Assembly (NCBI GenBank): GCA_036379675.1
Contig: DASVGF010000051.1
Location: 1-54,121, forward strand
DNA from: Gemmatimonadales bacterium
GTDB lineage: Bacteria; Gemmatimonadota; Gemmatimonadetes; Gemmatimonadales; GWC2-71-9
Direction: 5' to 3'
DNA: 54,121 bases
The position numbers were made by a program, and so were the translations under genes. Of this stretch, positions 6,130-23,210 are shown piece after piece. Within the stretch, counting starts at the first letter, position 1. Each line of letters opens with the position of its first letter. The notes under the pieces were generated by a model that ran no database searches, had not been told where the DNA came from, and saw only the letters and a program-made list of their open reading frames with translations.

Positions 6130-6137
6130 TTTTGGCC

Positions 6138-6235
6138 CCCTAACAGACGCACGCAGCTGGCGGCGCTTCACTCCAAGGAACGTTAGATAGTCCGCGAGCA
6201 GCCCTATCGCTGCAGCTGATGCGCGAGCCGCCGGG
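6138..6235 (+). repeat. attC site, type A, with mutated crossover box (GCCGGGC instead of GTTAGGC)
   Basis: R'' CCCTAAC 6138-6144. Right arm CGCTGCAGCTGATGCGCGAGCC is followed by GCCGGGC (6229-6235) where GTTRRRY is expected. Confidence 0.75.
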
Positions 6236-6256
6236 CCGACAGGATACAGGAGCAAC

Positions 6257-6760: not shown

Positions 6761-6798
6761 AACGTCTGGGTGCGATTACGGGGTCGGGAAGCGCTGCG

Positions 6799-6815
6799 GC
6801 CCAACAAGCACACCG
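6799..6815 (+). repeat. Possible attC left-half remnant between two ORFs
   Basis: GCCCAACAAGCACACCG compared with consensus GCCTAACAAGCGCATGC (13/17). No right half. Confidence 0.3.
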
Positions 6816-6824
6816 TCACCTCCC

Positions 6825-7844: not shown

Positions 7845-7854
7845 TGTGGTCGCG

Positions 7855-7897
7855 GCCTAACCGGCGCTTGGATCTGGCGGCGCGGGTAGGATATTAC
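7855..7897 (+). repeat. attC remnant (left half plus part of loop)
   Basis: GCCTAACCGGCGCTTGGATCTGGCGGCGCGGGTAGGATATTAC parallels consensus GCCTAACCAGCGCATGCAGCTGGCGGCGC..GTTAGATAGTGAC. No right arm. Confidence 0.6.
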
Positions 7898-7914
7898 ATG
7901 ACTACTGAGCAGCA

Positions 7915-7965
7915 GCCTAACAGGCGCATGCAAGTGGCGGCGCTTCAGGTTTAAGGAACACAGGG
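7915..7965 (+). repeat. attC remnant (second left half plus loop start)
   Basis: GCCTAACAGGCGCATGCAAGTGGCGGCGCTTCAGGTTTAAGGAAC, then similarity ends. No GTTRRRY before the next ORF (a weak GTTACCG at 7989). Confidence 0.65.
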
Positions 7966-7997
7966 CGCATTTCTTTCTTGAAGGGCTGGTTACCGCT

Positions 7998-8468
7998 TTG
8001 TACCTCTGGGTCAAGCTTCTCCACGTGGCCGCGGTTGTCGCCTTCCTCGGCAATATTACTACGGGTCTCTTCTGGCATGCCCATGCCGCCCGCACTCGTG
8101 ACCCCCGGCTACTCGCGCATGCGGTCGACGGCATCATCCGGAGTGACCGCCTTTTCACCATTCCGGGTGTCATCGTGATCATCGTAACCGGTGCCGTTGC
8201 AGCGGTTATCGGTGGGTTTCCGATCCTGCGGACTCCTTGGATCCTGTGGTCCTTGGTGCTGTTCGCCGTGTCGGGGCTGGTTTTCGTGTTGCGCGTCGCG
8301 CCCCTCCAGGTCCAGCTCCGAGCTCTTGCGCAGGCTGGGGTTGAACCGGGCGTATGGGATTGGGAACGCTACAAGCGCCTGGCGCGCACCTGGGAGCTGT
8401 GGGGCGCTGTTGCGTTGCTTACGCCCATGGCTGCCCTGGTCCTGATGGTACTCAAGCCGAGCTTCTAG
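7998..8468 (+). CDS. DUF2269-like integral membrane protein
   Basis: 156 aa, four hydrophobic helices. N-terminal LWVKLLHVAAVVAFLGN pattern as in DUF2269. TTG start. Confidence 0.55.
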   Translation: MYLWVKLLHVAAVVAFLGNITTGLFWHAHAARTRDPRLLAHAVDGIIRSDRLFTIPGVIVIIVTGAVAAVIGGFPILRTPWILWSLVLFAVSGLVFVLRVAPLQVQLRALAQAGVEPGVWDWERYKRLARTWELWGAVALLTPMAALVLMVLKPSF

Positions 8469-8483
8469 GAGTGCGCGCCAGGT

Positions 8484-8584
8484 GCCTAACAAGGGCATGC
8501 AGCTGGCGGTCGCTTCAGATCAAAGGAACGTCGGATAGTGTGCATGCGGCCAAGTCGCCGCAGCTGATGTGCGGTCCGTTCGGC
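8484..8584 (+). repeat. attC site, type A (101 bp), R' GTTCGGC
   Basis: R'' GCCTAAC 8484-8490, R' GTTCGGC 8578-8584. Loop CAGATCAAAGGAACGTCGGATAGTG. Confidence 0.88.
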
Positions 8585-8755
8585 AGCGTCGGAGATCAAA
8601 CAGCATCGCTTTGCGTCGGCAGAGCCACAAAGCTGTCGCATCTCAGACAGGTTCCACCCCATTCCCATTTCCGGGTCGGGCGCTACGTTCTTTTTATCCC
8701 CACACACGATCCAGTTACCGGTGCCGCCGACCGGAACCGGCCAGTAGGAGGTCCT

Positions 8756-9871
8756 ATGAAGCCCGCTATGCCCTACCGGGTTCTTGCCCTCTCGCTCCTT
8801 GCGCTGCTGCTGGCGATCCGGCCGGGTGCCGCACAGGGCCGGCTCGCCCTTGGAGTCGCAGCTGGTCCCTCGCCCTATGATCTCGCGGGCACCGGTACCG
8901 GCACCTCCGGAGCCGCGCTCCTGGCCTGGCGGCCGGTCCGCGGTCTGGTGGTGGAGCCCGGCGTTACGGTCTTCAGCTATGTCAGCCAGTTCGGCACACG
9001 CACCAGCCTCCTCTTTCCCGAGCTCAGCGTCCAGGGGGAGCTGGTGCGCGGTTCTTTTCGTCCTTTTATCGGCGGCGGAGCTGGCTCCTCGTTCGGTCTC
9101 CAAGGCGAAGGTGAAATAGCCCTGACACTGCACGCGGTGGGCGGCGCGCGCGTCGACCTCAGCGATGCATGGTCTCTGCTCGGCGAGATGAGGATACGGG
9201 CGGTTCGTCCCTGGACCGGGAACACAGTCGATTTCCTGTTCGGTGTCAGCCGACGGCTTCAGCAGTTCGTGGGGAGACCCGCCGGCCCGACCTATCTTCC
9301 TGCTGTGCCGGTGGACCGTTCCCCAGTGGACCCAGGTCGGTTCGAGCTGGCAGGGCACCTGGGCGTGCATGTGGACCGGCCTGCGGAGGCCGATCGGGTG
9401 GTCACCGACAGAGGTGCGGCGATGTACGCCACAGCGGGTGAGGCGAGCGCCTTCTCGGCACGGCTGGGGTACTGGCTACGTCCCGCACTGGGCCTTCAGT
9501 TTGGTGTGAGTCACTCCTCCAACGCGGCCTGGGAGGGCTCGACGCCGATTCCTCCTCCTGGTTTCGCCAACCGCACCACGTACCTGAGCGCCCGCGGCGT
9601 GGTTCGCACATCGCCGGTGCGGCCCCTGCATCTGTTCGCCGCGGCGGGGCCCGCTCTCATGCTGTATGGCGGGACGGGCGAGAATCTCCGGACCAGAGAT
9701 GCGGATCTGGGTGGTGTACTGGACGTAGGCGCTCGACTGCGCATGACCCCCTGGCTAGGGGTAGAGCTGGCATTGAGCAATTACTTCTACGGCTCACAGT
9801 ATCGGGACGAAGGGAGTGTTTTCCGGCACGACCTGCTGATCTTGCCGGGGCTGGTCTTCTCTTGGAACTAG
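8756..9871 (+). CDS. Exported protein, two outer-membrane beta-barrel-like modules
   Basis: GGAGG RBS 8745-8749, ATG 8756, signal peptide MKPAMPYRVLALSLLALLLAIRPGAAQ. Alternating hydrophobic beta-strand pattern. The upstream 134 aa of the track ORF run through attC and are rejected. Confidence 0.65.
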   Translation: MKPAMPYRVLALSLLALLLAIRPGAAQGRLALGVAAGPSPYDLAGTGTGTSGAALLAWRPVRGLVVEPGVTVFSYVSQFGTRTSLLFPELSVQGELVRGSFRPFIGGGAGSSFGLQGEGEIALTLHAVGGARVDLSDAWSLLGEMRIRAVRPWTGNTVDFLFGVSRRLQQFVGRPAGPTYLPAVPVDRSPVDPGRFELAGHLGVHVDRPAEADRVVTDRGAAMYATAGEASAFSARLGYWLRPALGLQFGVSHSSNAAWEGSTPIPPPGFANRTTYLSARGVVRTSPVRPLHLFAAAGPALMLYGGTGENLRTRDADLGGVLDVGARLRMTPWLGVELALSNYFYGSQYRDEGSVFRHDLLILPGLVFSWN

Positions 9872-9921
9872 AGCGCAACGTCTCCTGCGCGTCCAGCTAA
9901 AGTCGTGTGATCGCTGCCGCT

Positions 9922-10023
9922 GCCTGACAAGCGCATGCATCCGATGGCGCGTCACCTCCAAAGGAAGGATAGGATTGTGCCCAAGCGGAGAAGCCGCCGC
10001 AGCTGATGCGCGGTCCGTTAGGC
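9922..10023 (+). repeat. attC site, type A (102 bp), R'' GCCTGAC
   Basis: R'' GCCTGAC 9922-9928, R' GTTAGGC 10017-10023, arms AAGCGCATGCATCCGATGG / GCCGCCGCAGCTGATGCGCGGTCC. Confidence 0.88.
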
Positions 10024-10047
10024 CGATCGCACGATTGAGGAGGAAGC

Positions 10048-10419
10048 TTGACTTCAGCCCCGTCGTCTCCATGCGGCCCGCTCGCGGTGCTGTTCCTACT
10101 GCTGACCGGCTGCTACACCTGGCAACCGTACGAGCACGGACCACTGCTGATAGCGGGTGAGTCCCTACCACACAATCTGCGAGCCACACGACGCGACAGT
10201 ACTCAGGTCACTGTAACTGCACCCTTCCTTCGGTCGGATACCCTCTTCGGGCATCTCGACGGGGATACTGTTGCGGTTCCTGTTCCCGATATTGCTAGAG
10301 TGCAGCGGCTGGGCTTTAGCACCGTACGGACCTTGGGACTAGTGCTCGTCCCGGCTGCGGCTTTGGGGTTGACATATCTGATCGTCTGTGGGGAGCGTGG
10401 CTGCGAGCCACAGTACTGA
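10048..10419 (+). CDS. Lipoprotein with C-terminal TM helix; paralog of 16634-16978
   Basis: LLLTGC lipobox. Shares CYTWQPY, PFLRSDTLFG, DTV.VP and RTLGL motifs with the ORF downstream of lspA. TTG start. Confidence 0.7.
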   Translation: MTSAPSSPCGPLAVLFLLLTGCYTWQPYEHGPLLIAGESLPHNLRATRRDSTQVTVTAPFLRSDTLFGHLDGDTVAVPVPDIARVQRLGFSTVRTLGLVLVPAAALGLTYLIVCGERGCEPQY

Positions 10420-10430
10420 CTGTGGCAACG

Positions 10431-10530
10431 GCCTAACCAGCGCATGCAGCTGGCGGCGCTTTAGGTCTAAGGAACGTTAGATAGTGACAGTACTTAGAAG
10501 TCGCCGCAGCTCATGCGCGGTCCGTTAGGC
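10431..10530 (+). repeat. attC site, type A (100 bp), closest to consensus
   Basis: R'' GCCTAAC 10431-10437, R' GTTAGGC 10524-10530. Loop TTTAGGTCTAAGGAACGTTAGATAGTG 10460-10486. Confidence 0.92.
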
Positions 10531-10576
10531 TGCACGAGCAGCTGTCCGCCACTTTAACCTGAGCGGGGCCTCGGCA

Positions 10577-11035
10577 ATGATGCGCCTCAACTCTCGTGGC
10601 AGGAGCGGCCTTATCGTTTTAGCCCTTCTCCTTGCCTGTGGCGACTCGCCCTATGAACCGACACCGGGGCAGCTCGTCGGCGAGTTTAGCGGCCGGGCTG
10701 GCCAGGACTTGCAGACTTACGACCTCTTCCTTGCCATCGACGAGGTTGCCGACTCAGTGCGGGGGCTGTGGAGTCTCGCCTTCGTGACAACCTGTGCGAC
10801 CCACGACGGTCCGTTGAGCGGGACGCTGCATGGCGACCAGCTCCGGCTGCGCCTGCGACCGGACGAGGCGTACGAGGCCACCTTCGACCTGACCGTGCGC
10901 GTGCTTCCTGGCGATAGCGTACTGAGCGGAGGCTTGACTGTGGTGGCGGTGGGCACCGAACCCCTCTGCTTTGACGACTTCGCGTCGATCAGACTGCATC
11001 AGGGTGAGGTGGACGGTCTGCCGCTTGGGCGCTGA
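10577..11035 (+). CDS. Lipoprotein of unknown function
   Basis: MMRLNSRGRSGLIVLALLLAC has a positively charged n-region and LLAC lipobox. Confidence 0.65.
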   Translation: MMRLNSRGRSGLIVLALLLACGDSPYEPTPGQLVGEFSGRAGQDLQTYDLFLAIDEVADSVRGLWSLAFVTTCATHDGPLSGTLHGDQLRLRLRPDEAYEATFDLTVRVLPGDSVLSGGLTVVAVGTEPLCFDDFASIRLHQGEVDGLPLGR

Positions 11036-11046
11036 GGCTGTGTGCA

Positions 11047-11144
11047 GCCCAACAAGCGCATGCAGCCGACGGCCGTTCAGGTTCAAGGGAACGTTGGATT
11101 GTCCGCAGTCGAAAAGTCGTCGTAGCTGATGCGGTCCGTTTGAC
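11047..11144 (+). repeat. attC site, type A (98 bp), R'' GCCCAAC / R' GTTTGAC
   Basis: GCCCAAC 11047-11053, GTTTGAC 11138-11144. Arms AAGCGCATGCAGCCGACGG / GTCGTCGTAGCTGATGCGGTCC. Confidence 0.82.
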
Positions 11145-11622: not shown

Positions 11623-12105
11623 GTGCATCGCTGGTGGGCCGTAGCTCTCGTGATCATCCTCTACCCGCCAGCGGCATCGCTTGCTGGTCAGGAACCCCAT
11701 GTCGCACCTAACGCTCCCTCGGACCGGCCTGTTCGCGTGACCGAGCAGGAACAACGACAGCGGCTCGAGGCCGCTTTGACGCCGTACGTCGCACAGGCTC
11801 GAGCGACCTTTCCTAACGCCAAGGCTCGCTATCTCCGAGGACTTCCAGCAGGCCAGAGTTTCTTCGTAACCATCAAGCTCCGCGACCAGGCGGGGCGTAG
11901 CGAAATGGTCTTCCTCGCGGTAGACAGTCTGGCTCGAGACATCTTTGGCCGAATCTGGAACCAGATCCACGTGGTCCACGGCTACCGGTTGCGTGATCGG
12001 CATGCGGTGGCCGAGCACGAGGTTCTGGATTGGCTCATCACGAAGCCGGACGGCTCGGAGGAGGGGAATGTGGTGGGGAAGTTTCTGGACACCTACCGGC
12101 CATAA
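11623..12105 (+). CDS. Exported protein, DUF2314-like
   Basis: Signal-like N-terminus MHRWWAVALVIILYPPAASLAGQ. FFVTIKL....E.VFLAVD....IFGRIWN......GYRLRD......EVLDW resembles DUF2314. No attC separates it from the VOC gene. Confidence 0.45.
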   Translation: MHRWWAVALVIILYPPAASLAGQEPHVAPNAPSDRPVRVTEQEQRQRLEAALTPYVAQARATFPNAKARYLRGLPAGQSFFVTIKLRDQAGRSEMVFLAVDSLARDIFGRIWNQIHVVHGYRLRDRHAVAEHEVLDWLITKPDGSEEGNVVGKFLDTYRP

Positions 12106-12127
12106 GTGCGCGGGCAGATGGCTTGCA

Positions 12128-12160
12128 GCCTCACAAAGGCATGCGGCTGACGCTTCAAGG
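12128..12160 (+). repeat. attC remnant (left half only)
   Basis: GCCTCACAAAGGCATGCGGCTGACGCTTCAAGG compared with GCCTAACAAGCGCATGCAGCTGGCGGCGCTTCAGG. Right arm absent. Confidence 0.6.
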
Positions 12161-12178
12161 CGAAGGAGTGGGCCTCAG

Positions 12179-12625
12179 ATGATTCTTCCACTTGGAGGCG
12201 GGGCGAAACTGGTCAGGCTTCTGCCGCCCGGCATTGTCGCTGTTACGATTCTTGCGTGTTCGGATTCGCCCTCGGAGCCGAGGTTCGAGCCCTGCCCTGG
12301 CGAGGCGGTGACGATGGAGGTCAGCGCCGGGCTGACACCACTGTTTACGTGGACCCCTGCCTGTGGCATGGCGTTCCTCGAAGTCTATCCTGCCGCCGGC
12401 GGCAGCGCCCTGTGGACAGTCTATGCGGAGTCGGGTGCGGGTCCGGAGAATCCAATCCCTTCGGGTGTTCGGTACGGTACCACCCCATTGCGTGGTCATA
12501 CGGTCGCCGGGCCCCAGCCGCTGCAAGCAGGCGACTCATATCGCGCTCGCGTCAGTCGCATGCTCTGTGACCAAGGGGCGCTCTGCACTCTCCAGCACGC
12601 GGGTGACGCGTCCTTTCAGCCGTAG
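12179..12625 (+). CDS. Lipoprotein of unknown function
   Basis: ATG 12179 gives MILPLGGGAKLVRLLPPGIVAVTILACSDS (lipobox ILAC). The longer track ORF from 11945 overlaps the previous gene and the attC remnant. Confidence 0.6.
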   Translation: MILPLGGGAKLVRLLPPGIVAVTILACSDSPSEPRFEPCPGEAVTMEVSAGLTPLFTWTPACGMAFLEVYPAAGGSALWTVYAESGAGPENPIPSGVRYGTTPLRGHTVAGPQPLQAGDSYRARVSRMLCDQGALCTLQHAGDASFQP

Positions 12626-12643: not shown

Positions 12644-12683
12644 GCCTCACAGGCTGCTGCAGCTGGCGGACGGCCCGTTAGCC
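12644..12683 (+). repeat. attC site with internal deletion (40 bp)
   Basis: GCCTCAC 12644-12650 + AGGCTGCTGCAGCTGGCGGACGGCCC + GTTAGCC 12677-12683. Left and right arms are fused at the shared GCAGCTG and the loop is missing. Confidence 0.6.
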
Positions 12684-12691: not shown

Positions 12692-13363
12692 TTGACAGTA
12701 TCGGGGCAGCTCCACCAATTGGACCACGATCAGGAGCCGACGACTGCGGTACGCCATTATAACCCTCGATGCTGTCCGGGATTCCAAGTGGAGGACCTTC
12801 GCTACGAGCTGAGCGCGCGCGATGAAATCTCCTTTGTCAATGAGGAATGGTTTCGTTTCGCCCGGGCCAACGACGGAGAGTCTCTTCGCGCCGGCCAGAT
12901 CCTGGGTCGCCCCCTGTGGGATTTCATCGGTGACATGGAGACCCGACAGATTTACCGTCTCCTCCACCGGCGCGTGCGGGAGAACGGCACGCCGGTGCGG
13001 CTCTGCTTCCGATGTGACGCCCCTGACCGGCGCCGGCTCCTAGAGCTCGACATCTCCGCAGGGCCGGAACGCGGGTTGATCTACCGCGTCCGCACCTTGG
13101 GGGAACGAGAACGTCAACCAGTGCCGCTCCTGGAACCACAACGTCCACGCTCAGAGCATTTTGTGACCATCTGCGCGTGGTGCGAGCGAATCGCAGTGCC
13201 GCCTCACGGGTGGCTGGAGATTGAGTCGGCCATCGCGGTGCTGCCGCTGCTGGCCGAGCCCCGTCCCCCGCAGCTGACCCATGGCGTCTGCGAGGTGTGC
13301 GTTCAAGCTCTTCACGCCGCGCTCGGCGAAGAGCCCGTTAGGGCCGTGTTGGGTCAACTGTAG
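12692..13363 (+). CDS. PAS-like protein with C-terminal Cys-rich motif (CAWC...HGVCEVC)
   Basis: ISFVNEEWFRFARANDGE...GRPLWDFI resembles a PAS core. C-terminus is ICAWCERI....GWLE....THGVCEVC. Start uncertain (TTG 12692 or GTG 12788). Confidence 0.5.
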   Translation: MTVSGQLHQLDHDQEPTTAVRHYNPRCCPGFQVEDLRYELSARDEISFVNEEWFRFARANDGESLRAGQILGRPLWDFIGDMETRQIYRLLHRRVRENGTPVRLCFRCDAPDRRRLLELDISAGPERGLIYRVRTLGERERQPVPLLEPQRPRSEHFVTICAWCERIAVPPHGWLEIESAIAVLPLLAEPRPPQLTHGVCEVCVQALHAALGEEPVRAVLGQL

Positions 13364-13365
13364 TC

Positions 13366-13419
13366 CGAAGTGAGAAGCGGCTCAGGAAGTCGCCGCCGCT
13401 GATGCGCGGCCCGTTCAGG
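13366..13419 (+). repeat. attC remnant (loop end plus right half)
   Basis: AAGTCGCCGCCGCTGATGCGCGGCCCGTTCAGG matches the consensus right arm, with R' GTTCAGG at 13413-13419. No R''/left arm. Confidence 0.65.
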
Positions 13420-13468: not shown

Positions 13469-14164
13469 GTGCGGGCGTGTGTCTTTGACGCCTACGGCAC
13501 GCTACTTGACTTGGCCTCTGCGGTAGACCCCCACAGAGCAGCGCTGGGCGAGACGGCACCCCGGCTCCTTGCGCTCTGGCGGGCGAAGCAGCTGGAGTAC
13601 ACCTGGCTGCGCACCCTTATGGAACGCCACGCCGACTTCGCCCGGGTGACCGAGGAGGCGCTGGAGTACGCCTGTGCGGCGCTCGACATCCGGGACTTGC
13701 CGCTGCGCCGCAGCCTCCTGACAGGCTTCCTCGAGCTGGCCGCCTATCCCGATGCAGCGCAGATGCTCCGGCGCCTGCGGGCGAGAGGGCTGCGCACCGC
13801 GGTGCTCTCGAACGGCACGCCTGCCATGCTCGAGCAAGCCTTGACGCAGGCGGGCCTCGCCCCGTTGCTCGACAGCGTGCTCTCCGTCGAGACCGTCGGG
13901 TTCTACAAGCCGAGTCCTCGCGTCTATCACTTCGCTGCCGAGACGCTCGAGCTCGAGATCGGGGCGCTGTTGTTCGTCAGTGCCAATGCGTGGGATGCGG
14001 CTGGCGCGGCGAGCGCGGGGCTGCGGGCAGTCTGGGTCAACCGCGCCGGTGCGCCGGCCGAGCGACTCCCAGCAGGCCCGGCGTTCACCCTGCGAACGCT
14101 GGGTGAGGTGCCTGCCCTTCTCGGCGGGGGCCCGGAGGGGCCGCCGGGGCCTGTGGCGGCCTAG
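13469..14164 (+). CDS. Haloacid dehalogenase type II (HAD superfamily)
   Basis: FDAYGTLLD nucleophile motif, WR.KQLEYTWLR, LSNG, FYKP and SANAWDAAGA motifs characteristic of L-2-haloacid dehalogenases. TAG stop 14162-14164 lies inside GCCTAGC. Confidence 0.85.
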   Translation: MRACVFDAYGTLLDLASAVDPHRAALGETAPRLLALWRAKQLEYTWLRTLMERHADFARVTEEALEYACAALDIRDLPLRRSLLTGFLELAAYPDAAQMLRRLRARGLRTAVLSNGTPAMLEQALTQAGLAPLLDSVLSVETVGFYKPSPRVYHFAAETLELEIGALLFVSANAWDAAGAASAGLRAVWVNRAGAPAERLPAGPAFTLRTLGEVPALLGGGPEGPPGPVAA

Positions 14165-14917: not shown

Positions 14918-15496
14918 ATGCAAACCGAGCACCTGACTCGCGAGGACCTGGTTTCGGCACTATCGGCTGCGGAAGTGGACGTTGCAGACTTCTTCGCCTC
15001 GCTCACTCCAGACGAGCTTGTTTTGCGGGTGGAGAACGCCTGGACCGCTGCCGAGCAGCTCGCCCATCTCAACGCTGCCGTGAGTGCGGTGGCGAGGGGT
15101 TTTGCAGTTCCGCGGATTATCCTGCGTCTTCGATTCGGTCGGGCCCGGAGCTCCGGACGTAGCTACACGGCACTACGGGACGATTATCGTGCCCGGCTGG
15201 CGGCCGGTGGTCGGGCTTCCGGGCCGTTCGTTCCCAATCGCCATGATCTGCCGACGTCACAGGGTGAAGCGCGTCGCCGTGACTTGCTCGCACGTTGGCA
15301 CAGGGTAAACAATCGGCTTCAGAAGGCGCTCGAGTCGTGGAACGAGCAGGCTCTGAATACGATCCGGCTGCCTCATCCCTTGCTGGGGAAGATCACCGCT
15401 CGGGAGATGATCTACTTCACGTTGTACCACGCCAAGCACCACGTGACTGCGACCAAGAAACGGCTGCCACGCTTCACCGGGTCAAGTGCCGGCTGA
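14918..15496 (+). CDS. DinB family protein
   Basis: ATG 14918. WTAAEQLAHL near the N-terminus and FTLYHAKHH near the C-terminus fit the DinB/YfiT-type four-helix metal-binding His pattern. TGA stop 15494-15496 lies inside GGCTGAC. Confidence 0.6.
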   Translation: MQTEHLTREDLVSALSAAEVDVADFFASLTPDELVLRVENAWTAAEQLAHLNAAVSAVARGFAVPRIILRLRFGRARSSGRSYTALRDDYRARLAAGGRASGPFVPNRHDLPTSQGEARRRDLLARWHRVNNRLQKALESWNEQALNTIRLPHPLLGKITAREMIYFTLYHAKHHVTATKKRLPRFTGSSAG

Positions 15497-15520
15497 CAAG
15501 CGCATTCAGCCGATAAGCAG
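15491..15520 (+). repeat. attC remnant (left half only)
   Basis: GGCTGACAAGCGCATTCAGCCGATAAGCAG compared with GCCTAACAAGCGCATGCAGCCGAC. Confidence 0.55.
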
Positions 15521-15547
15521 CAAACCACCCTGTGCTGGGAGGCCAGC

Positions 15548-15916
15548 GTGAAACGACCACTGACAGGAATGATACTGGCGCTCACCAGCCTCCCGGCTTG
15601 CAGCGAGCGGGAGGCGACTCGCGATCCCGGGTCTTCTCACGCTGCCGAGGCGGTACCCCGATTGGATTCCGCCAAGGTGCCGGCCGATCTGCGGGATCTC
15701 GTGCCGTACGCGCAGCGCTGGGGGATCGGAGATGATGTCGCCCGCTCAGCGCGGGTTCGGAAGGCCACCGACGCCGAACGATCCGAACTGCGCGCGGCCT
15801 TTGGCCCGCGGCAGGCGCGGATCACAGCCTGGCTCGATTCCTTTGGACCGGGAGCAATGCCGGAGGAGGCGGCGGCCTTCATGTACACCCAGCTTGCCAT
15901 CGAGGAAATGCCCTAG
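15548..15916 (+). CDS. Lipoprotein of unknown function
   Basis: MKRPLTGMILALTSLPAC has a lipobox-like LPAC. GTG start. Confidence 0.55.
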   Translation: MKRPLTGMILALTSLPACSEREATRDPGSSHAAEAVPRLDSAKVPADLRDLVPYAQRWGIGDDVARSARVRKATDAERSELRAAFGPRQARITAWLDSFGPGAMPEEAAAFMYTQLAIEEMP

Positions 15917-15945
15917 GACGCGGCAGGCAGCGGGGATGTCACCCG

Positions 15946-16018
15946 GCCGCTAGCCGCCGGCCCGCTGGTACTCCATTTTCCAGAATTCCCCCGCCAGAGC
16001 GTGAAGCGGCCGTTAGCC
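15946..16018 (+). repeat. Degenerate attC (right half well conserved)
   Basis: GCGTGAAGCGGCCGTTAGCC (R' GTTAGCC 16012-16018) parallels GCTGATGCGCGGTCCGTTAGGC. The left part GCCGCTAGCCGCCGG is only weakly similar to GCCTAGCC-type R''. Confidence 0.45.
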
Positions 16019-16091
16019 AGTACAACGTGCGGAGGATGACAAACACGGAACGGCGCACATTCTCGAAGGTGCCATATTCCGGGATGTTGAC

Positions 16092-16589
16092 GTGTCTCCT
16101 AAAGTACGGTCGTTCTGGCCACTCCTGCTGAGTGTGCTCCTGACCGATTGCGCGACCAAGCAGTTCGCCATCGAGCGCCTCGCGCCGGTTGCCACACCGC
16201 ACGAGGTGCTGGGAGACTGGGTCAGACTCGTCCTTGTTTATAACCGCGGGGCGGCCATGGGTCTTTCCCTGGGATCCTGGGCTCGACCGCTCCTGGCGGT
16301 GGTCACGGTGGCGATGCTGGGGCTCTTGTGGGTGTGGTATCGGCGGACCAGGCGGCGGGATTGGATGACGGCGGCCGCACTGGGGCTGATCGCGGGCGGG
16401 GCGCTGGGGAATCTGCTGGACCGCCTGCGGTGGGACCGGGGGGTGGTGGACTTCATCGACATTGGCTGGGGATCGGTTCGCTTCTGGACTTTCAATGTGG
16501 CCGATGTCGGCATCACCTGCGGTGCCCTGTGGCTGGCGTGGCGACTGAGCCGCCGTCAGGCCGAACCACCTGAGCCGGCTGCGGTCTGA
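16092..16589 (+). CDS. lspA: Lipoprotein signal peptidase (signal peptidase II)
   Basis: LLTDCATKQ (conserved D/K), NRGAAMG, GGALGNLLDR, VVDFID and FNVADV motifs align with E. coli LspA. GTG start. TGA stop lies inside GTCTGAC. Confidence 0.9.
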   Translation: MSPKVRSFWPLLLSVLLTDCATKQFAIERLAPVATPHEVLGDWVRLVLVYNRGAAMGLSLGSWARPLLAVVTVAMLGLLWVWYRRTRRRDWMTAAALGLIAGGALGNLLDRLRWDRGVVDFIDIGWGSVRFWTFNVADVGITCGALWLAWRLSRRQAEPPEPAAV

Positions 16590-16608
16590 CCAGCGAGGCC
16601 GGTTGGGC
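16584..16608 (+). repeat. Possible minimal attC relic after lspA (GTCTGAC-N11-GTTGGGC)
   Basis: An RYYYRAC-like heptamer contains the lspA stop and is followed 11 nt later by GTTGGGC (the same R' variant as 5648). Too short to fold as a functional attC. Confidence 0.25.
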
Positions 16609-16633
16609 CGAGCCCGAAATCGGTGGAGGATTC

Positions 16634-16978
16634 ATGCGGTCATGGAACGCCTGGTTTCTCGCAGGTCTCGCGCTCTTTCTGGGAAGCTGCACCTACTGGG
16701 AGCCCTATGCTCCACTCGCATCTACGGGTCCATCACCGGACTTGCCGTCTTCACTCCAGGTCGTATCCGACACCGGCTCACCCCTGCTGCTCACCGAGCC
16801 ATTTGTCAGGGCCGACACCCTCTTCGGCCGCACCGGTCGGGACACCGTGCGGCTTCCGCTCCACCAGCTGCGTGAAGTACAGCGTCAACGGGTACATGGA
16901 TTGCGGACCCTCGGCTTGATTGCAGGCGTGGGCGCGGTATGGATCACTGTAGGGCTGTACGGTGGCGGGCTGGAATAG
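16634..16978 (+). CDS. Lipoprotein with C-terminal TM helix; paralog of cassette ORF 10048-10419
   Basis: LALFLGSC lipobox. CTYWEPY, PFVRADTLFG, DTVRLP and RTLGL motifs are shared with the cassette protein. Confidence 0.7.
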   Translation: MRSWNAWFLAGLALFLGSCTYWEPYAPLASTGPSPDLPSSLQVVSDTGSPLLLTEPFVRADTLFGRTGRDTVRLPLHQLREVQRQRVHGLRTLGLIAGVGAVWITVGLYGGGLE

Positions 16979-17003
16979 GTCACGGCGCATGGAACTGGGA
17001 GGG
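16977..17003 (+). repeat. Possible attC left-half relic
   Basis: AGGTCAC-G-GCGCATG-GAACTGG-GAGG compared with GCCTCAC-AA-GCGCATG-CAGCTGG-CGG. It starts at the stop codon of the preceding ORF. Confidence 0.3.
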
Positions 17004-17007
17004 GATC

Positions 17008-17391
17008 ATGGAGACTGTGGACCGTGCGTTCGGGTGGCTGCTGATCGTCGGAGGGGTCCTGCATGCGATCGGCTCATGGACGGGTTACAGGACTACGCCC
17101 GAGACGCTCCTCTGGGCCCTCGCGGGCTCGCTGGCGGCCCTGCTCGTGGCCGCGGTCAACCTGCTGCGGGCGGGCCGGCCGGGCGACCTTCCGCTGGCGT
17201 GGGTGAGCCTTGGCGGATCCGTCGCGTGGATGGCGGTGGCCCTCGGCTTCGGGATCGTGATCGGGAACCTCCTCGACCCTCGCGCGCTGATCCATATGCT
17301 CAACGCGCTGGTTCTGGCGGGGATGAGCCTGCGTACGGTCGGGCGTGCGAAAAAGGGGGCGCAGTATCCCCGAGGGCGCGGCGGAACCTGA
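17008..17391 (+). CDS. Integral membrane protein of unknown function
   Basis: GGGAGGGG RBS then ATG 17008. Four predicted hydrophobic helices. Confidence 0.55.
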   Translation: METVDRAFGWLLIVGGVLHAIGSWTGYRTTPETLLWALAGSLAALLVAAVNLLRAGRPGDLPLAWVSLGGSVAWMAVALGFGIVIGNLLDPRALIHMLNALVLAGMSLRTVGRAKKGAQYPRGRGGT

Positions 17392-17542
17392 ATTTTCTGC
17401 GGGCGCGGTAGCGTGCCAGGTGAGTGGTCTGCCAATACTGAGTCGCCCTCCTTCCACTTAACCGGGCCCTAGCCGTCCCCGCATAGCCTCTTCAGATTTC
17501 GAGCAGCCTGATCCTGTGTTTGGCAGCGTGGAGCCGCGTTGG

Positions 17543-17899
17543 ATGACCGTGAGCGCAAGCTTCAGAGCCTTCGTCCTCGAACAACTCGCCCGTGAGGTTC
17601 AGGGCATCCGCGGGCGGAACATGTTCGGCGGGGTGGGGATCTACAGTGGGGAGCTTTTCTTTGCGCTGATTGCCGATGACTCCCTGTACTTCAAGGTAGA
17701 CGAATCGAATCGGCCGGAGTTCGAGGCCAGAGGCATGGGTCCCTTTCAACCGTACGGCGAAGACGGCGAGGTGATGCAATACTACCGTGTGCCCGAGGAT
17801 CTGCTCGATGACCCCGAAGTGTTGGGCCAATGGGCTGAGAAAGCGATCAGTGTGGCACGCCGTGCCCGGCGCGGGCCTCCTCGCCGGCGCGGCGCCTGA
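17543..17899 (+). CDS. TfoX N-terminal domain protein
   Basis: MFGGVGIYSGELFFALIADDSLYFKVD....EF...G..PF......G.....YY.VP matches the TfoX_N pattern. Confidence 0.7.
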   Translation: MTVSASFRAFVLEQLAREVQGIRGRNMFGGVGIYSGELFFALIADDSLYFKVDESNRPEFEARGMGPFQPYGEDGEVMQYYRVPEDLLDDPEVLGQWAEKAISVARRARRGPPRRRGA

Positions 17900-17935
17900 G
17901 TGTCAGGAAACCGGCAGAACAGGAAGGAAGCCTCG

Positions 17936-18589
17936 ATGGTTCCAGCACGCGAAGCCCTCGCCCGGCTGCGGGAAGGGAACCTCCGGTTCGCTTCGAACGT
18001 CGGTGGCTCCCATCCATACCCGGCTCACGTGCGGCGGGCCGAGCTGGCCTCCGGCCAGCAGCCGTTCGCCATCATACTCGGCTGCTCGGACTCGCGGGTG
18101 CCGGCCGAGATCGTGTTCGATCAGGGATTGGGCGACCTTTTCGTCATTCGCGTTGCCGGCAACATCGTGGCCCCCTCCCAGGTCGGCAGCGTCGAGTTTG
18201 CCGCCGCCCGGTTCAATACCCGGCTGGTGGTAGTGCTGGGACACTCGCAGTGCGGCGCGGTCCTGGCCACGCTGGAAGAGCTTCAAAGGCCGACGGAGAA
18301 CCAGTCTCGCAACCTGCGGGCAATCGTCGATCGGGTGCGCCCCTCCGTCGAGGGGCTGCTGGCAACCGGACTACGGCACGATCTGGACGCCCTCATGCCG
18401 CACGCGGTTCGGGCTAACATCCGCGCATCCGTCAACCACCTGCGCCACGGCTCCGAGGTGCTGGAGCAGCTGATTCAGGACGAAGGCCTGCGCGTCGTCG
18501 GCGCCGAGTACTCACTGGAAACCGGCGTGGTGGACTTCTTCGACGGCGCTCCCGCAATTGAAGGCGTGTCGGTTCTCGAGGAGGCGTAG
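17936..18589 (+). CDS. Beta-class carbonic anhydrase
   Basis: CSDSRVPAEIVFDQGLGDLFVIRVAGN and VVLGHSQCGAV zinc-ligand motifs. AGGAAGG RBS upstream of ATG 17936. Confidence 0.88.
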   Translation: MVPAREALARLREGNLRFASNVGGSHPYPAHVRRAELASGQQPFAIILGCSDSRVPAEIVFDQGLGDLFVIRVAGNIVAPSQVGSVEFAAARFNTRLVVVLGHSQCGAVLATLEELQRPTENQSRNLRAIVDRVRPSVEGLLATGLRHDLDALMPHAVRANIRASVNHLRHGSEVLEQLIQDEGLRVVGAEYSLETGVVDFFDGAPAIEGVSVLEEA

Positions 18590-18602
18590 CGGCTCGGCTC
18601 GG

Positions 18603-19208
18603 ATGAGACACCCCGAGCTCCGGACCGAGCTGCTCGAGCTTGCCGCGCACGACCTGCGAGTACGATCGGAGATCGCGTCAGCCGGCCAGCTGAGCCAGGC
18701 CGGGTATCATCCGCAAATGCAGGAGGTACACCGCCGCAACGCCGAGCGGCTCCGTGCCATCCTTGCCCGCCACGGGTGGCCCGACGAGGACATGGTCGGT
18801 CCCGATGGGGCCGAGGCCGCGTGGCTCATCGTCCAACATGCCATCGGCGATCCCGCGCTCCAGCGCCAGTCGCTGGAGCGCGTGCAGCGCGCAGCGAGCC
18901 TGGGCGCGGTGCCGGGCTGGCAGGCCGCGTTTCTGGAAGACCGGATCAGGTTCTTCGAGGGCCGACCCCAGCTTTACGGGACCCAATTCGACTGGGACGA
19001 GTCGGGCCAGCTGAGCCCGGCACCCGACATCGAAGATCCCGCTGGAGTGGACGCCCGCCGGCGGTCCGTTGGGCTGGAGCCGCTGGCAGAGGCGACACGC
19101 CGGCACCGGGAGCGGGCGGCGATCGACAACGAGCGCCCCCCCGCAGATCCTGCCGCCCGGCGGCGCGAGCTGGAAGAGTGGGCCCGCCGGGTGGGCTGGC
19201 GCCGCTAG
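18603..19208 (+). CDS. Conserved hypothetical protein (DUF6624-like)
   Basis: L.E....D...R ... N...L..I....GWP....VG..GA.AAWL.VQHA ... AFLEDR......Q.YGTQ pattern. Assignment by memory only. Confidence 0.45.
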   Translation: MRHPELRTELLELAAHDLRVRSEIASAGQLSQAGYHPQMQEVHRRNAERLRAILARHGWPDEDMVGPDGAEAAWLIVQHAIGDPALQRQSLERVQRAASLGAVPGWQAAFLEDRIRFFEGRPQLYGTQFDWDESGQLSPAPDIEDPAGVDARRRSVGLEPLAEATRRHRERAAIDNERPPADPAARRRELEEWARRVGWRR

Positions 19209-19229
19209 GCGCTTCGCCGAGGAGTCGCC

Positions 19230-19538
19230 ATGCATCTGGTCCAGCTTCTCCTGCCGGTTCGCGACGAGTCGGGCCGGCCCTTCCCCCGGAAGCTGTACGA
19301 TACGCTGGTTGATGAGCTGACCGACCGGTTTGGCGGCGTGACGGCCTACACCCGGGCTCCGGCCTCCGGCCTGTGGGAAGAGAACTCGGGACGGACGGTG
19401 CGAGACGACGTGGTCGTCTACGAGGTCATGGCCAACCAGCTCGATGAGAGATGGTGGAAAGCGCTGCGAACCCGCCTGGAGAAGGCATTCGATCAGGATG
19501 AGCTGGTTGTGCGGGCCCATGAAATACGCCGGCTGTAA
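19230..19538 (+). CDS. Hypothetical protein (102 aa)
   Basis: Clean ATG ORF with plausible composition. No family recognised. Confidence 0.5.
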   Translation: MHLVQLLLPVRDESGRPFPRKLYDTLVDELTDRFGGVTAYTRAPASGLWEENSGRTVRDDVVVYEVMANQLDERWWKALRTRLEKAFDQDELVVRAHEIRRL

Positions 19539-19571
19539 CCTCCCCCTTTTCCCACCAGCAACGAGGGATTC

Positions 19572-19979
19572 TTGCCAAGCAACCTGTTCGAGCTCACGGT
19601 TGGCATCGCGATCGGAGTGCTCGCGGCCTGGGTGTGTTTCCTGGTCTGGAAGGTGGGGTATACCACCCGCATCCGGGAGGATGCGGTTCAGCGCAGCCAG
19701 GCGATAACGGCGGGGAAGGTCCACGAGCAGCTGATTCCCTATCTCCCCGTGTTTCCCTACAACCCGAAGGACGTCCGGTTTCTCGGCAGCCCGGTGGATC
19801 TGGTGGTGTTTGACGGGCTGTCGGAAGGCCGGTTGGACCGCATCGTCTTCGTTGAGGTCAAGACCGGCGGCTCCGGCCTGACCATCCGTGAACGATCCGT
19901 GCGGGACGTCGTTCGCGCTGGGGAAATCGACTGGGAGGAGCTCCGCGTGCCCCGTCCCGTTGCCAGCGGCGCGGCGTGA
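19572..19979 (+). CDS. Membrane-anchored Holliday-junction-resolvase-like endonuclease (COG4741-like)
   Basis: N-terminal TM helix. GSPVDLVVFDG......IVFVEVKTGGS.L..RE resembles the archaeal Hjc/PD-(D/E)xK core. TTG start. Confidence 0.5.
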   Translation: MPSNLFELTVGIAIGVLAAWVCFLVWKVGYTTRIREDAVQRSQAITAGKVHEQLIPYLPVFPYNPKDVRFLGSPVDLVVFDGLSEGRLDRIVFVEVKTGGSGLTIRERSVRDVVRAGEIDWEELRVPRPVASGAA

Positions 19980-20004
19980 CCAGCCTTTCGTAGATGGAGG
20001 ACTC

Positions 20005-20763
20005 ATGCTTCGATACTCTCTCGCCGTCCTGACACTGTCGGTCGCCGGCGTCCACCTGGCGCAGGAGCCGGAGCTGCTTCGACGCGCCAGGATGGTCCGG
20101 ATGTCCTCGCTGGATTCCACGCTTCCGGCTGTCTCCCTCGAGCGTTGGCTGCTCCAGCAGGCAGCGGGGGCGGGCGCGAAGGTTGAGTGGGAGGTCAACG
20201 ACTGTGGTGAGGGTGGCGACGGGCTGGCGGCACCCACCTGCGTGGAAGGCCGGGTCCAAGTGGCCCCCGATACCGCCGCCTACCTCAGCCTGATCGTGGC
20301 CGGTACCGATGGGGAATCGGGCAGACCGGAGATCTGGTCGCTGCATGCCACTGAAGGAAGGGCCGTCACCACCTTCCAGAGCCTTCCGGCTTGGGCGGCG
20401 TACCTTCGCCGAGACCCGCGACGCCAGGTGTTCGTGGCCGAGAGCAGCTTCGCGGCCAGCATGGCCCGTCGCGACCTCGAGGCCTTTGCGGCCTTTGTCT
20501 CGCCCGAAGCGGTCTTCTTCGCCGATACGGCGGTGCTGCGCGGCCGCGACCGGGTCGTCGAGGGCTGGCGGCGGTTCTTCGTGGGCCCGGCCCCCTTCTC
20601 CTGGAAACCCGACGTCATCGAGGTGCTCCCCTCGGGCAAGCTCGCGATCAGCAACGGGCCCGTCTTCGATCCAGCCGGCAAGAAGATCGGCAGCTTCAGC
20701 TCGATCTGGCGCCGGGAGCCCGATGGCCGCTGGCTGATCATCTTCGACAAGGGCTGCGCCTGA
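20005..20763 (+). CDS. Exported protein with C-terminal SnoaL-like/DUF4440 domain
   Basis: GGAGG RBS, ATG 20005, signal peptide MLRYSLAVLTLSVAGVHLAQ. The C-terminal FVSPEAVFF....LRGRD.V..GW ... GRWLIIFDKG has the NTF2-like pattern. Confidence 0.6.
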   Translation: MLRYSLAVLTLSVAGVHLAQEPELLRRARMVRMSSLDSTLPAVSLERWLLQQAAGAGAKVEWEVNDCGEGGDGLAAPTCVEGRVQVAPDTAAYLSLIVAGTDGESGRPEIWSLHATEGRAVTTFQSLPAWAAYLRRDPRRQVFVAESSFAASMARRDLEAFAAFVSPEAVFFADTAVLRGRDRVVEGWRRFFVGPAPFSWKPDVIEVLPSGKLAISNGPVFDPAGKKIGSFSSIWRREPDGRWLIIFDKGCA

Positions 20764-21108
20764 GTGTTCGTCCGCATCTGGAAGTTCCACGTGCATCCCG
20801 GCAGGAACCACGAGTTCGAGGCCGCCTATGGGCCTATCGGACCCTGGACCCGGCTCTTTGAGCGGGTAGCCGGCTATTGCGGCACCGAGCTCCTGACTGA
20901 CGCCGGCGACGCGAATACCTACTTCACCATCGATTGGTGGGAGAGCGCGGAGGCATGGGCCGCGTTTCTGCGGGCGTGGGGTGAAGACTATGCCGCGCTT
21001 GATCGGCGTTGCGAGGGGCTGGCGCTTTCAGAAATGGAGGTGGGAGAGTTCCAGGGGCTCGGGGCCTCCGACCCGGCGTGCCAGAAGTTGCGAAACACGA
21101 TCGAATAG
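20764..21108 (+). CDS. Antibiotic biosynthesis monooxygenase (ABM)-like protein
   Basis: MFVRIWKFHV..G....FE..Y ... YFTIDWWES.EAW..F has the ferredoxin-like ABM pattern. GTG start abuts the upstream stop. Confidence 0.55.
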   Translation: MFVRIWKFHVHPGRNHEFEAAYGPIGPWTRLFERVAGYCGTELLTDAGDANTYFTIDWWESAEAWAAFLRAWGEDYAALDRRCEGLALSEMEVGEFQGLGASDPACQKLRNTIE

Positions 21109-21206: not shown

Positions 21207-23210
21207 TCAGCTCCGGGCCAGTCTCGGCGCCGCGGCCAGCTTTCTTACCGCATTGGCCAGCAGACGAGTCTTTGCCGGATCCTTGGCGCCCGCGGCTTCG
21301 GTCTCCAGACGCGTCGCCAGGGCGGCCAACGCCTTGCTCCGCTCGGCGTCGGAGGCCTTTTCGGCAGCGGCCAGGGCGGCCCGGAACTCGGCGATTCGAC
21401 CCGCGTCCAATCCCTTCGACCGCTCCAGCTGATCCAGATAGGCTCGGGGGACGGAGAACGTGGCCGGCCAGACCAGCTTCGGCTGTCCCTGGACGTTCAG
21501 ATACTCCAGCTTCACCGAGCGGGCCGCATCGATCTCGTTCTGGCTGACCAGCCCGCTTGGCACCAGCTCCAGAATGTCCAGCCCGCGGGAGATCTCGGAG
21601 CTGACGATGACGCCGTTGTACCAGTACGCCGACCACGAGCCGCCGCCCTCCATCCGGGTCGAGTCCACCGGCCCCCGGTCGAAGTAGGCGATCTCTTTCG
21701 GCTGCTTGGGATCAGTCCAGTCGAACACCGAGATGCCGCCCTGGTACCAGGCCTGCACCATCACGTCGCGGCCGGGGATCGGGATCAGCGACCCGTTATG
21801 GGCCACGCAGTTCTCCTGCGGCGTCTGCGGGGCCGGCAGCTTGTAATAGCTCTGGAACTGCATCTTCCGGTCGCGGGTGAGGGTGAAGATGGCATCCGCT
21901 CCCCACTCCCGCTTGTCCGTGCTGCGGCACTTGGGCTGGCTGCCGCCGCCCCACTCATCGGAAAAGAGGATCTTGGTGCCGTCGTTGTTGAACGTGGCCG
22001 AGTGCCAGTAGGAGAAGTTCGAGTCGGCCACGGCGCCGATGCGGACCGGCTGCACCGGGTTGCGGATGTCGAGCAGGAGGCCATAGCCGCCGCAGGCGCC
22101 GCCGGCCAGCCCGATGGCCGGGTAAACCGTGATGTCATGGCACTGGGTCGGCCCGGCATTGGAATCGGGCATTTCGGCCATGTACGTCTTCATTTCGGCC
22201 TCGATGATTCCCGGCAGCGCCCGCCGCAGGGTGGAGCTGTCCGTTGAAGTCGGGGCGCCGGTTCCGTTGCGGGCCTTTACGATGCTGTCCAGCAACATCG
22301 CGGTCCACTGCGGATTGATTAACTGTTCCTCCCCATGGATCATCGCGGTGAATCCACCGTGAGCCTTGGCCTCAGCCAATGCCTTTTCCGCCGCAACCTT
22401 GTCCTCCGGTGCGTCGCCGTGCTCCGGCGGCGCCACCAGACCCTCGAAAATCCTGGGCGAGCTGACGATCGCCGCCTGCTCCGGATGGGCCAGCGGCACC
22501 TTGATGACCTCGATGCGGAACAGCGCCGAGTTGGGATCCTTCGGCGCACGCACGCAGCCGGGCATCTCGTTGGGCGACCGCACCTGCGACGATCCCGAGA
22601 TGTAGACGTAGACGTTCTCCCGGTCCTTCGGATCCACCAGCACCGTGTGGGTATGCGAGCCCCGGCAGGTCTGCACGTTGCCCACGTTCCGGGGCCGGGT
22701 GATGTCGGTGATGTCGAAGATGCGGATGCCCCGCAGCCGGTCCTTGCTCACCGTGTCCTGCACGCCCTCCACCCCGCAATCCAGCCGGGCTGCGAGATTC
22801 TCGCCCGACACGAAGAGCAGATTCTTGTAGACCGAAACGTCGCTCTGGGAGGCGGGACAGACGTGGGCCGCTTTCAGGCTGGGCCGGCGCGGGTTGGAGA
22901 TGTCCCACACCTGGTAACCGTTGTAGTTGCCCTGGATTGCGTAGTTCCCGGTAAAGGCCAGGTCGGAGTTGGTGACGTCCAGGAACTGGTCCGGCGGCGG
23001 CGTCTTGGAGAGCACGCGCAGATTCCACACCGCTTCCGCGGCATCCATCTTCCCGGCCCGGAGACCCACCCGGGGATCCGGATTTGGAGCTGCCGTAGAC
23101 CGGTGAGCGCTCGGGGCCGGAGTACCGTCCGAGCCCGACGAGGTGGAGCGGGCACAGGCCGCGCCGGCGAGGAGGGCGAGTATCAACGGCAACTTCAGTA
23201 CGGATACCAT
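21207..23210 (-). CDS. LVIVD-repeat beta-propeller protein (COG5276-like), exported
   Basis: Signal peptide MVSVLKLPLILALLAGAAC. Repeated YKNLLFVSGE, HTHTVL, CHDITVY, HSATFNNDGT and AWYQGGISVFDW blades. Confidence 0.7.
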   Translation of the reverse strand: MVSVLKLPLILALLAGAACARSTSSGSDGTPAPSAHRSTAAPNPDPRVGLRAGKMDAAEAVWNLRVLSKTPPPDQFLDVTNSDLAFTGNYAIQGNYNGYQVWDISNPRRPSLKAAHVCPASQSDVSVYKNLLFVSGENLAARLDCGVEGVQDTVSKDRLRGIRIFDITDITRPRNVGNVQTCRGSHTHTVLVDPKDRENVYVYISGSSQVRSPNEMPGCVRAPKDPNSALFRIEVIKVPLAHPEQAAIVSSPRIFEGLVAPPEHGDAPEDKVAAEKALAEAKAHGGFTAMIHGEEQLINPQWTAMLLDSIVKARNGTGAPTSTDSSTLRRALPGIIEAEMKTYMAEMPDSNAGPTQCHDITVYPAIGLAGGACGGYGLLLDIRNPVQPVRIGAVADSNFSYWHSATFNNDGTKILFSDEWGGGSQPKCRSTDKREWGADAIFTLTRDRKMQFQSYYKLPAPQTPQENCVAHNGSLIPIPGRDVMVQAWYQGGISVFDWTDPKQPKEIAYFDRGPVDSTRMEGGGSWSAYWYNGVIVSSEISRGLDILELVPSGLVSQNEIDAARSVKLEYLNVQGQPKLVWPATFSVPRAYLDQLERSKGLDAGRIAEFRAALAAAEKASDAERSKALAALATRLETEAAGAKDPAKTRLLANAVRKLAAAPRLARS

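Follow-up and report, generated by a model that had tools for sequence, protein, structure and literature searches.

A lipoprotein signal peptidase gene in the decayed end of a Gemmatimonadales integron array is very probably a former gene cassette

We analyzed a 54,121-bp stretch of DNA (the window) from contig DASVGF010000051.1 of a Gemmatimonadales metagenome-assembled genome (MAG). Its GC content is 60–70%, and its left ~21 kb are a plus-strand integron cassette array that continues past the left window end. Inside this region lies lspA (16092–16589, plus strand), which encodes a lipoprotein signal peptidase II of 165 amino acids (aa) and is flanked by the NCBI locus tags VF252_02670 and VF252_02680. 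A first-pass annotation, made from the letters of the window, had noticed attC-like motifs around the gene and suspected a fossil cassette. Comparison with relatives makes it very likely that lspA is indeed a former integron gene cassette, situated in the old, integrase-distal part of the array.

The LspA translation matches the Pfam profile Peptidase_A8 (PF01252) over profile positions 2–139 of 142 (E = 1.2e-34; 120 bits at a cut-off of 25) and contains GNLLDR and FNVAD (N-x-x-D-R and F-N-x-A-D), which we take to be the motifs carrying the two catalytic aspartates of the family. With dN/dS values of 0.12–0.20 between the window copy and six clade members, lspA is under purifying selection and has been maintained as a functional gene. 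The enzyme is intact, and its most likely role is that of an additional signal peptidase for lipoproteins. The window contains only this one lspA copy, which would also suit a native housekeeping lspA that is simply the first chromosomal gene past the array end, its flanking motifs being chance occurrences in GC-rich DNA; for reasons given below, we regard this explanation as improbable. We infer a canonical second lspA elsewhere in the genome, since the closely related contig L058 has no lspA, either beside its copy of the lipoprotein cassette that follows lspA in the window or anywhere in the 19 kb compared, and since the clade to which window LspA belongs is distinct from the ordinary one. 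A scan for sigma-70 promoters across 15400–17600 returned none, using a sigma-70 model that is uninformative for this phylum.

Direct-repeat analysis and arm searches revealed repeated attC units that open with GCCTAAC (R'') and close with GTTAGGC (R'). The part of the array with intact attCs spans 1214–11144 on the plus strand and holds about 12 sites of ~100 or ~141 nucleotides (nt), as found by direct repeats, alignment and a covariance model. Nine aligned ~100-nt sites show a mean column identity of 82% and share a consensus fold of the classical attC type, in which R'' and R' form a stem of 7 bp and L'' and L' a second stem containing a bulged base, along with an unpaired, asymmetric spacer. 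A covariance model trained on these nine sites, with which the whole window was scanned with filters off, scored the intact attCs at 82–111 bits, the last of them ending at 11144, and nothing in the window beyond that position above 18 bits. In 14 of the 19 other listed left arms of the array, a stop codon (TAA, TGA or TAG) lies within R''. The cargo includes genes for a HAD hydrolase, DinB, RibD_C, a glyoxalase, DUF2269 and a reverse-oriented ParE/RHH toxin-antitoxin pair, and the first open reading frame (ORF) of the window (4–1167) encodes an amidohydrolase. Seven lipoproteins were predicted among the array ORFs by a crude lipobox scan, in agreement with the number of lipoprotein cassettes counted previously; both neighbors of lspA, encoding a 122-aa protein upstream (15548–15916, plus strand, lipobox LPAC) and a 114-aa protein downstream (16634–16978, plus strand, lipobox LGSC), are among them.

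Further along, the array has decayed. Between 12128 and 15514 on the plus strand we found left attC halves at 12128, 14159, 14839 and 15491, a collapsed 40-nt site at 12644–12683 and a right half at 13349–13419. This trail of half-sites reached position weight matrix (PWM) scores above every null position and nhmmer E values of 0.003 to 6e-6; the last relic that is significant by PWMs and profile hidden Markov models (HMMs) is the left arm at 15491–15514. The lspA gene follows in the same orientation as the array, with about 12 intact attCs and at least six relics upstream of it.

Relatives of the gene carry the case for a cassette origin. A close set of homologs was drawn from a large protein collection as protein clade P0001–P0022 (66–87% identity to window LspA). 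The closest lspA relatives, 72–88% identical, have strong same-family attCs at their boundaries, and every recovered context has different neighbors. In contig L056 (LspA identity 88%), one attC (590–690, 115 bits) precedes lspA (724–1236) and another (1231–1334, 89 bits) follows it, with the stop codon inside R''. In L024 (85%), an attC at 503–603 begins at the base right after lspA and two further attCs follow; L057 (79%) has an upstream attC of 76 bits and a downstream left arm, and L025 (72%) likewise an upstream attC and a downstream left arm. A more distant gene of a separate lineage (L033, 55%) has attCs on both sides within an array of at least ten. Other contexts retain less: a collapsed 40-nt attC after lspA in L043 (79%); in L022/L023 (75%), an intact attC ending 43 nt before lspA, with AGCTGATGCGCGGTC, which matches the L' arm perfectly over 15 nt, in the 3' end of the gene itself; only CCGTTAGAC at the matching place in L021 (80%); and in L018 (84%), where the stop codon is lost, almost nothing. 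Read in this order, the contexts form a series of decay stages located at the 3' end of the same gene, from intact through degenerate, collapsed and fused to coding sequence to erased. On the evidence of these contexts, lspA circulates as attC-bounded integron cargo in this lineage of soil Gemmatimonadota. We had also considered lspA as a marker of the chromosomal flank, as the last strong attC ends just before it in L022/L023, and rejected this given the attCs after lspA in L056, L024 and L025 and the live cassettes downstream in L058.

Phylogenetic placement, proposed in the first-pass annotation as a way of telling a native from an acquired gene, agrees with these contexts. In a neighbor-joining tree, window LspA falls within a 24-member clade that holds every attC-bounded lspA found, and its nearest relatives are those of L024, L018 and L056. 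Together with the nearest relatives of known DNA context (L056, L024, L057, L025 and L022), which are whole or almost whole cassettes whose neighbors differ on either side, this position upholds the proposal that lspA was once a cassette of the array. The sister group of the cassette clade is the lspA of the ABM-operon type. GTDB representative genomes contain distant relatives only, with LspA identities of 42–60%. Two of these (L002 and L006) carry lspA in a tight block of an NTF2-like gene, an ABM gene, lspA and DUF411 that leaves no room for an attC, and we interpret the lspA of such ABM–lspA–DUF411 blocks as the phylum's usual chromosomal copy. No same-family attC was found within 10 kb of lspA in the GTDB-representative relatives; tblastx synteny against them was swamped by GC-rich noise, with lspA and ABM as the only real matches. 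The window gene had been called a housekeeping-type gene; it belongs instead to an accessory clade that is 55–60% identical to the ABM–lspA–DUF411 lspA of other Gemmatimonadota. Both this divergence and the strong attCs and shifting neighbors of the closest homologs speak against a native housekeeping gene. In three Gemmatimonadaceae MAGs, lspA occurs as a pair of tandem genes (L003 10001–10980, L004 10001–10983 and L005 9968–10968), each copy being 47–54% identical to window LspA.

In the window itself, the stop codon of lspA (TGA, 16587–16589) lies inside the heptamer GTCTGAC (16584–16590), and GTTGGGC (16602–16608) follows 11 nt later, both exactly as first described; the accompanying remark that the same R' variant occurs at 5648 was mistaken, as the site there reads GTTGGGT. 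GTCTGAC shares alignment columns with the R'' of the attCs in L056, L024, L025 and L043. The 3' ends of the lspA genes align base for base into R'' (window GCTGCGGTCTGAC, L056 GCTGCCATCTAAC, L024 GCTGCCGCCTAAC), the window being identical over the last 31 nt at 24 positions to L056 and at 25 to L024, and GTCTGAC is thus the surviving R'' of the lspA cassette attC. It was presumably retained because it holds the stop codon. On the other side of the site, the lipoprotein gene of L058 is preceded by GTTAGGC-CGAGCGCAAGTGCAACGGAGGATTCATG and its window equivalent by GTTGGGC-CGAGCCCGAAATCGGTGGAGGATTCATG. Across R' and this leader (window 16602–16636, L058 8703–8737), 26 of 35 positions are identical, a value that none of 64,174 null positions reaches, and the similarity vanishes just upstream of GTT (1 of 9 positions). 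The GTT of R' is the canonical cassette crossover point, and a break there fits the fact that the upstream cassette differs, being DUF3303 in L058 and lspA in the window. Match and break together identify 16602–16608 as a true R'.

The resulting feature (16584–16608, plus strand) is a collapsed attC of 25 nt, made up of R'' with the stop codon, 11 nt and R', in which the L''–loop–L' middle is missing. The intact 3' attC (R''-L''-loop-L'-R') that the orthologs in L056, L024, L025 and L033 possess is no longer present at window lspA. That internal deletion recurs in this attC family is indicated by the collapsed 40-nt sites at 12644–12683 in the window and at 168–207 in L043. Far from attI, the distal attCs would have been destroyed mostly through internal deletion of their hairpin-forming middle; the lspA attC would have shrunk in this way to its present 25 nt, with R' GTTGGGC presumably kept because the site starts the next cassette, and the attC of the neighboring lipoprotein cassette would have been cut down to its L'' core. 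For a housekeeping gene flanked by chance motifs, the positional correspondence of the stop-codon heptamer and of R' plus leader to the attC cores of relatives would be hard to explain.

With R''-like and R'-like heptamers in the right order and orientation, the 25-nt site could conceivably work as a minimal attC and leave lspA mobilizable to this day, the more so as naturally short attCs occur in relatives, such as a 62-nt site of 60 bits in L033 (3812–3873). We consider this very improbable. The site has no L''/L' arms, its R'' and R' can pair at no more than 4 of their 7 positions, and no covariance model match was obtained there with filters off at E ≤ 10. It forms no hairpin, with a fold z of -0.69 relative to shuffles; the relic sequences altogether fold no better than shuffles, whereas the L056 attC forms a long imperfect hairpin. 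IntI recognizes the folded bottom strand of attC with its extrahelical bases, and the extrahelical bases that it needs cannot form at the 25-nt site. The distal cassettes, lspA among them, would accordingly be no longer excisable and by now be fixed chromosomal genes.

The downstream neighbor had also been suspected of cassette origin, and its homolog in L058 (8735–9079, 74% identity) is indeed a cassette, with an R' before it and an intact attC of 95 bits after it (9098–9197). In the window, the end of this gene overlaps AGGTCACGGCGCATGGAACTGG at 16977–16998, a motif that was originally extended to 17003 and ends five positions earlier. Within it, GGCGCATGGAACTGG (16984–16998, plus strand) aligns with the L'' AGCGCATGCAGCTGA of the L058 attC and is the L'' relic of the lipoprotein cassette attC, whose R'' region has decayed or been deleted and of which nothing else is left. 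Of the 15 positions in this core, 12 agree with the consensus, and the probability of meeting one or more matches this good within the 29-nt spacer is P = 0.0036. About 21 nt, R'' region included, are missing from the window after the 114-aa gene when it is compared with L058; AGGTCAC, which had been taken for the left-arm core, is therefore probably not an R'', and only the L'' core is secure.

These relics also bear on a different history, in which the genes of the lspA clade started out on the chromosome and entered cassettes by repeated recruitment, with the window preserving the pre-cassette state. In its favor, L033 carries a cassette lspA of a separate lineage, so that lspA has turned into a cassette, or diverged within one, on more than one occasion. 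Against such a history, the window copy has R''-like and R'-like cores exactly at the cassette boundaries, its neighbor has an L'' relic, the gene lies inside the array with decayed attCs on both sides, and its nearest relatives are attC-bounded. We give recruitment hardly any probability and retain the former cassette as the preferred explanation.

Complementarily, comparison with L058 locates the end of the array. Downstream of the lipoprotein cassette, a series of cassette-type genes without attCs (17008–21108, plus strand), assigned by Pfam and by synteny with L058, encodes a 127-aa membrane protein, TfoX_N, a beta-carbonic anhydrase, DUF6624, a 102-aa protein, Endonuc_Holl, a DUF4440 protein and ABM. 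The order TfoX_N, carbonic anhydrase, Endonuc_Holl, ABM is common to the window and L058 at 80–91% identity; within this shared series, the DUF6624, 102-aa and DUF4440 genes are present as whole genes in the window only. A conserved chromosomal flank follows, beginning with a convergent gene of 667 aa (21207–23210, minus strand) and continuing with DUF305 and DUF488 genes; these are 94%, 88% and 94% identical to their L058 counterparts and stand in the same order. Whole genes present or absent in an otherwise collinear series are the trace of cassette turnover, which puts the end of the array-derived region at ~21.1 kb and the flank from 21207. The L058 array is live, with 11 attCs of 89–114 bits that reach to ~1 kb before TfoX; unlike there, the intact attCs of the window stop 10 kb short of the array end. 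The suggestion that the array once included lspA and its neighbor is thus borne out as regards inclusion and falls short as regards extent, as the synteny with L058 suggests a fossil array running much further, to about 21.1 kb. The cassette status in L058 of the genes that follow lspA in the window, and the beginning of the conserved flank only at 21.2 kb, are likewise at odds with lspA being the first chromosomal gene past the array. Between TfoX_N and the carbonic anhydrase gene, L058 contains a fragment (13926–14143) matching the C-terminal third of the window cassette at 11945–12625, which looks like the remnant of a lost cassette.

Several results weigh against reading lspA as a former cassette. 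Integrase and attI are absent from the 54-kb window, so that membership of the array in a complete integron is not demonstrable. Under general attC models, the three motifs around lspA behave as random sequence, as the housekeeping explanation would have it, an outcome that the annotation had itself listed among the grounds for refuting its proposal: the covariance model gave no match at any of them with filters off at E ≤ 10, the nearest being 15922–15962 (E = 9.7); arm PWMs and arm and whole-site profile HMMs left them unreported even at E ≤ 1000; and local alignment of the spacers to the attC consensus against a random-segment null gave P = 0.72 upstream of lspA, 0.61 downstream and 0.14 after the next gene. 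The collapsed site at 16584–16608 is identical, without gaps, at 18 of 25 positions to a predicted collapsed attC, GCCTAAC-AAGCGC|GGTCCGTTAGGC, that is, the consensus attC minus everything between its two GCGC repeats, and none of 64,194 null positions reaches that value; the model was set after the site had been seen, which makes the figure indicative only. Two clade members, L018 (epimerase–lspA–GNAT, with overlapping genes) and L021 (beside an M17 peptidase gene), lack recognizable attCs and sit beside ordinary genes, as a housekeeping lspA would; we read them as further decay, although they could represent a chromosomal ancestral state. Finally, most of the related contigs are short metagenome fragments without assigned taxonomy.

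The upstream boundary belongs among these points. The annotation had called the right half of an attC clearly readable there, and the string GCGTGAAGCGGCCGTTAGCC is present at 15999–16018, including GTTAGCC at 16012–16018. The best alignment to four orthologous sequences of upstream attC plus leader falls on 15989–16020, significantly so for L022 only (P = 0.002, compared with 0.24–0.31 for the other three), and a profile of the lspA cassette leader found no match upstream of window lspA. We therefore list 15989–16018 (plus strand) as a possible attC right-arm relic with R' GTTAGCC and as a candidate 5' boundary of the lspA cassette. The 122-aa lipoprotein gene immediately upstream is of no help in this respect, as its homologs in L059, L060 and L061 lie inside multi-gene blocks without flanking attCs; contigs L060 and L061, on which homologs with 80–89% identity are found, carry same-family attC fragments.

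We judge the general attC models too blunt for such remnants, since whole-site and arm methods cannot bridge an internal deletion of ~76 nt. Tests restricted by position or based on orthology upheld two of the three motif sites, those downstream of lspA and after the next gene. The original observation is in this sense partly confirmed, with all quoted strings present in the window and two of the three sites validated through intact sites in relatives.

Integrons have already been recorded in Gemmatimonadota (PMC8618304), and clusters of attCs without an integrase form a known category, termed CALINs (Cury et al., as summarised in PMC8618304). The window array resembles sedentary chromosomal integrons, such as the Vibrio superintegron, and CALINs in consisting of small, unrelated and mostly promoterless genes pointing in one direction. 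As in integron cassettes, each gene is followed by an inverted repeat that is imperfect, carries RYYYAAC and GTTRRRY cores and has a conserved hairpin, and part of its cargo is typical of known integrons (the reverse-oriented ParE/RHH pair, glyoxalase, DinB, RibD_C and lipoproteins). It differs from these systems in that its cargo includes a lipoprotein signal peptidase, in that the window has no integrase, and in the ~10 kb of distal array (11.1–21.1 kb) without recognizable attCs, owing to which standard attC detection would put the array end well before lspA. Full-text literature searches found no paper describing lspA as an integron cassette. We therefore regard the locus as adding a new type of cargo, and a clear series of decay stages, to a known system, and not as a new kind of system. 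It places a core envelope-biogenesis enzyme among the integron cargo of an under-studied soil phylum, and the decay series shows stages by which cassettes turn into ordinary chromosomal genes. As general attC models miss ~10 kb of array here, attC-based surveys can underestimate array length.

A mobile lspA has been reported on an ISPpu12-like transposon (pbrR, a cation efflux gene, lspA and tnpA) in the AbaR1 island of Acinetobacter baumannii (PMC1326220). In both cases an additional lspA, distinct from the housekeeping gene, is carried by a mobile genetic element; in gene content, on which this comparison is based, the vehicle in AbaR1 differs in being a transposon with metal-resistance genes and no attC-bounded cassette. 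Regarding function, more LspA, or amplification of lspA, raises tolerance to the globomycin analog G0790 in E. coli (PMC7482066), there through unstable laboratory amplification of the native gene, whereas the present gene is an accessory cassette copy known from sequence. Globomycin and myxovirescin are natural LspA inhibitors (PMC6952399). As an extra LspA raises inhibitor tolerance, exposure to LspA inhibitors could plausibly select for an accessory copy in soil bacteria. On the same ground, the cassette lspA is a candidate natural resistance determinant of relevance to LspA inhibitors in development. By analogy, and tentatively, the cassette lspA might serve as a mobile defense against globomycin or myxovirescin among soil Gemmatimonadota, as an extra or inhibitor-insensitive enzyme, and/or might provide processing capacity for the unusually numerous lipoprotein cassettes of these arrays; we hold this to be possible and rather doubtful.

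Some further observations concern the surroundings of lspA. A leader is conserved right after R' in lspA cassettes, CAGCAGCGCGA(C/G)CATCG (L056 691–723, L057 2872–2926, L025 536–582 and L022 2805–2847), and could be a regulatory or translation signal. In the ordinary operon, an ABM gene directly precedes lspA (L002 5245–5544, L006 818–1099), and a homolog of this operon ABM (44% identity) is the last fossil-array gene of the window (20764–21108), 4.2 kb downstream of lspA, which is either coincidence or a trace of the origin of the cassette lspA. We considered whether the window ABM gene reflects a rearranged native ABM–lspA operon, as in L002 and L006, and dismissed this, as ABM is the last array gene in L058 too (91% identity) and has no adjacent lspA there. 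An HD-domain 5'-deoxynucleotidase gene of L018 (12204–12773) follows lspA at a distance of 1.7 kb; its window homolog (81% identity) is found 12.8 kb downstream, at 29356–30003, and the interval between the two genes has been heavily remodeled between the L018 and window lineages. The family of the 122-aa lipoprotein is conserved and very widespread, with more than 100 clusters at 70–89% identity, and one member stands on a contig binned as Thermoanaerobaculia (Acidobacteriota), through either inter-phylum transfer or a binning error.

Other observations concern the array at large. Rfam at gathering thresholds gave zero matches in the window. The ParE toxin and RHH antitoxin pair lies inside the array at 2434–2938 on the minus strand, and ParE and BrnT toxin cassettes are found in L058 too. 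The attCs fall into two size classes, ~100 nt and ~141 nt, that occur side by side within single arrays (window 1214–1354 and 2284–2425, L058 8569–8711, L033 and L025), and the ~141-nt sites of the window reach just 10–16 bits under the model made from the ~100-nt class. A loop motif, AAGGAACGTTAGATAGTG, is conserved in the ~100-nt attCs (window 1736–11144, for example at 1774–1792) and resembles a ribosome-binding site followed by a GTG start. When the window is aligned with L058, the sequence around the start of the 127-aa ORF (ATG at 17008; window 16999–17020) coincides with this attC loop motif, and the ORF may thus start in attC-derived sequence.

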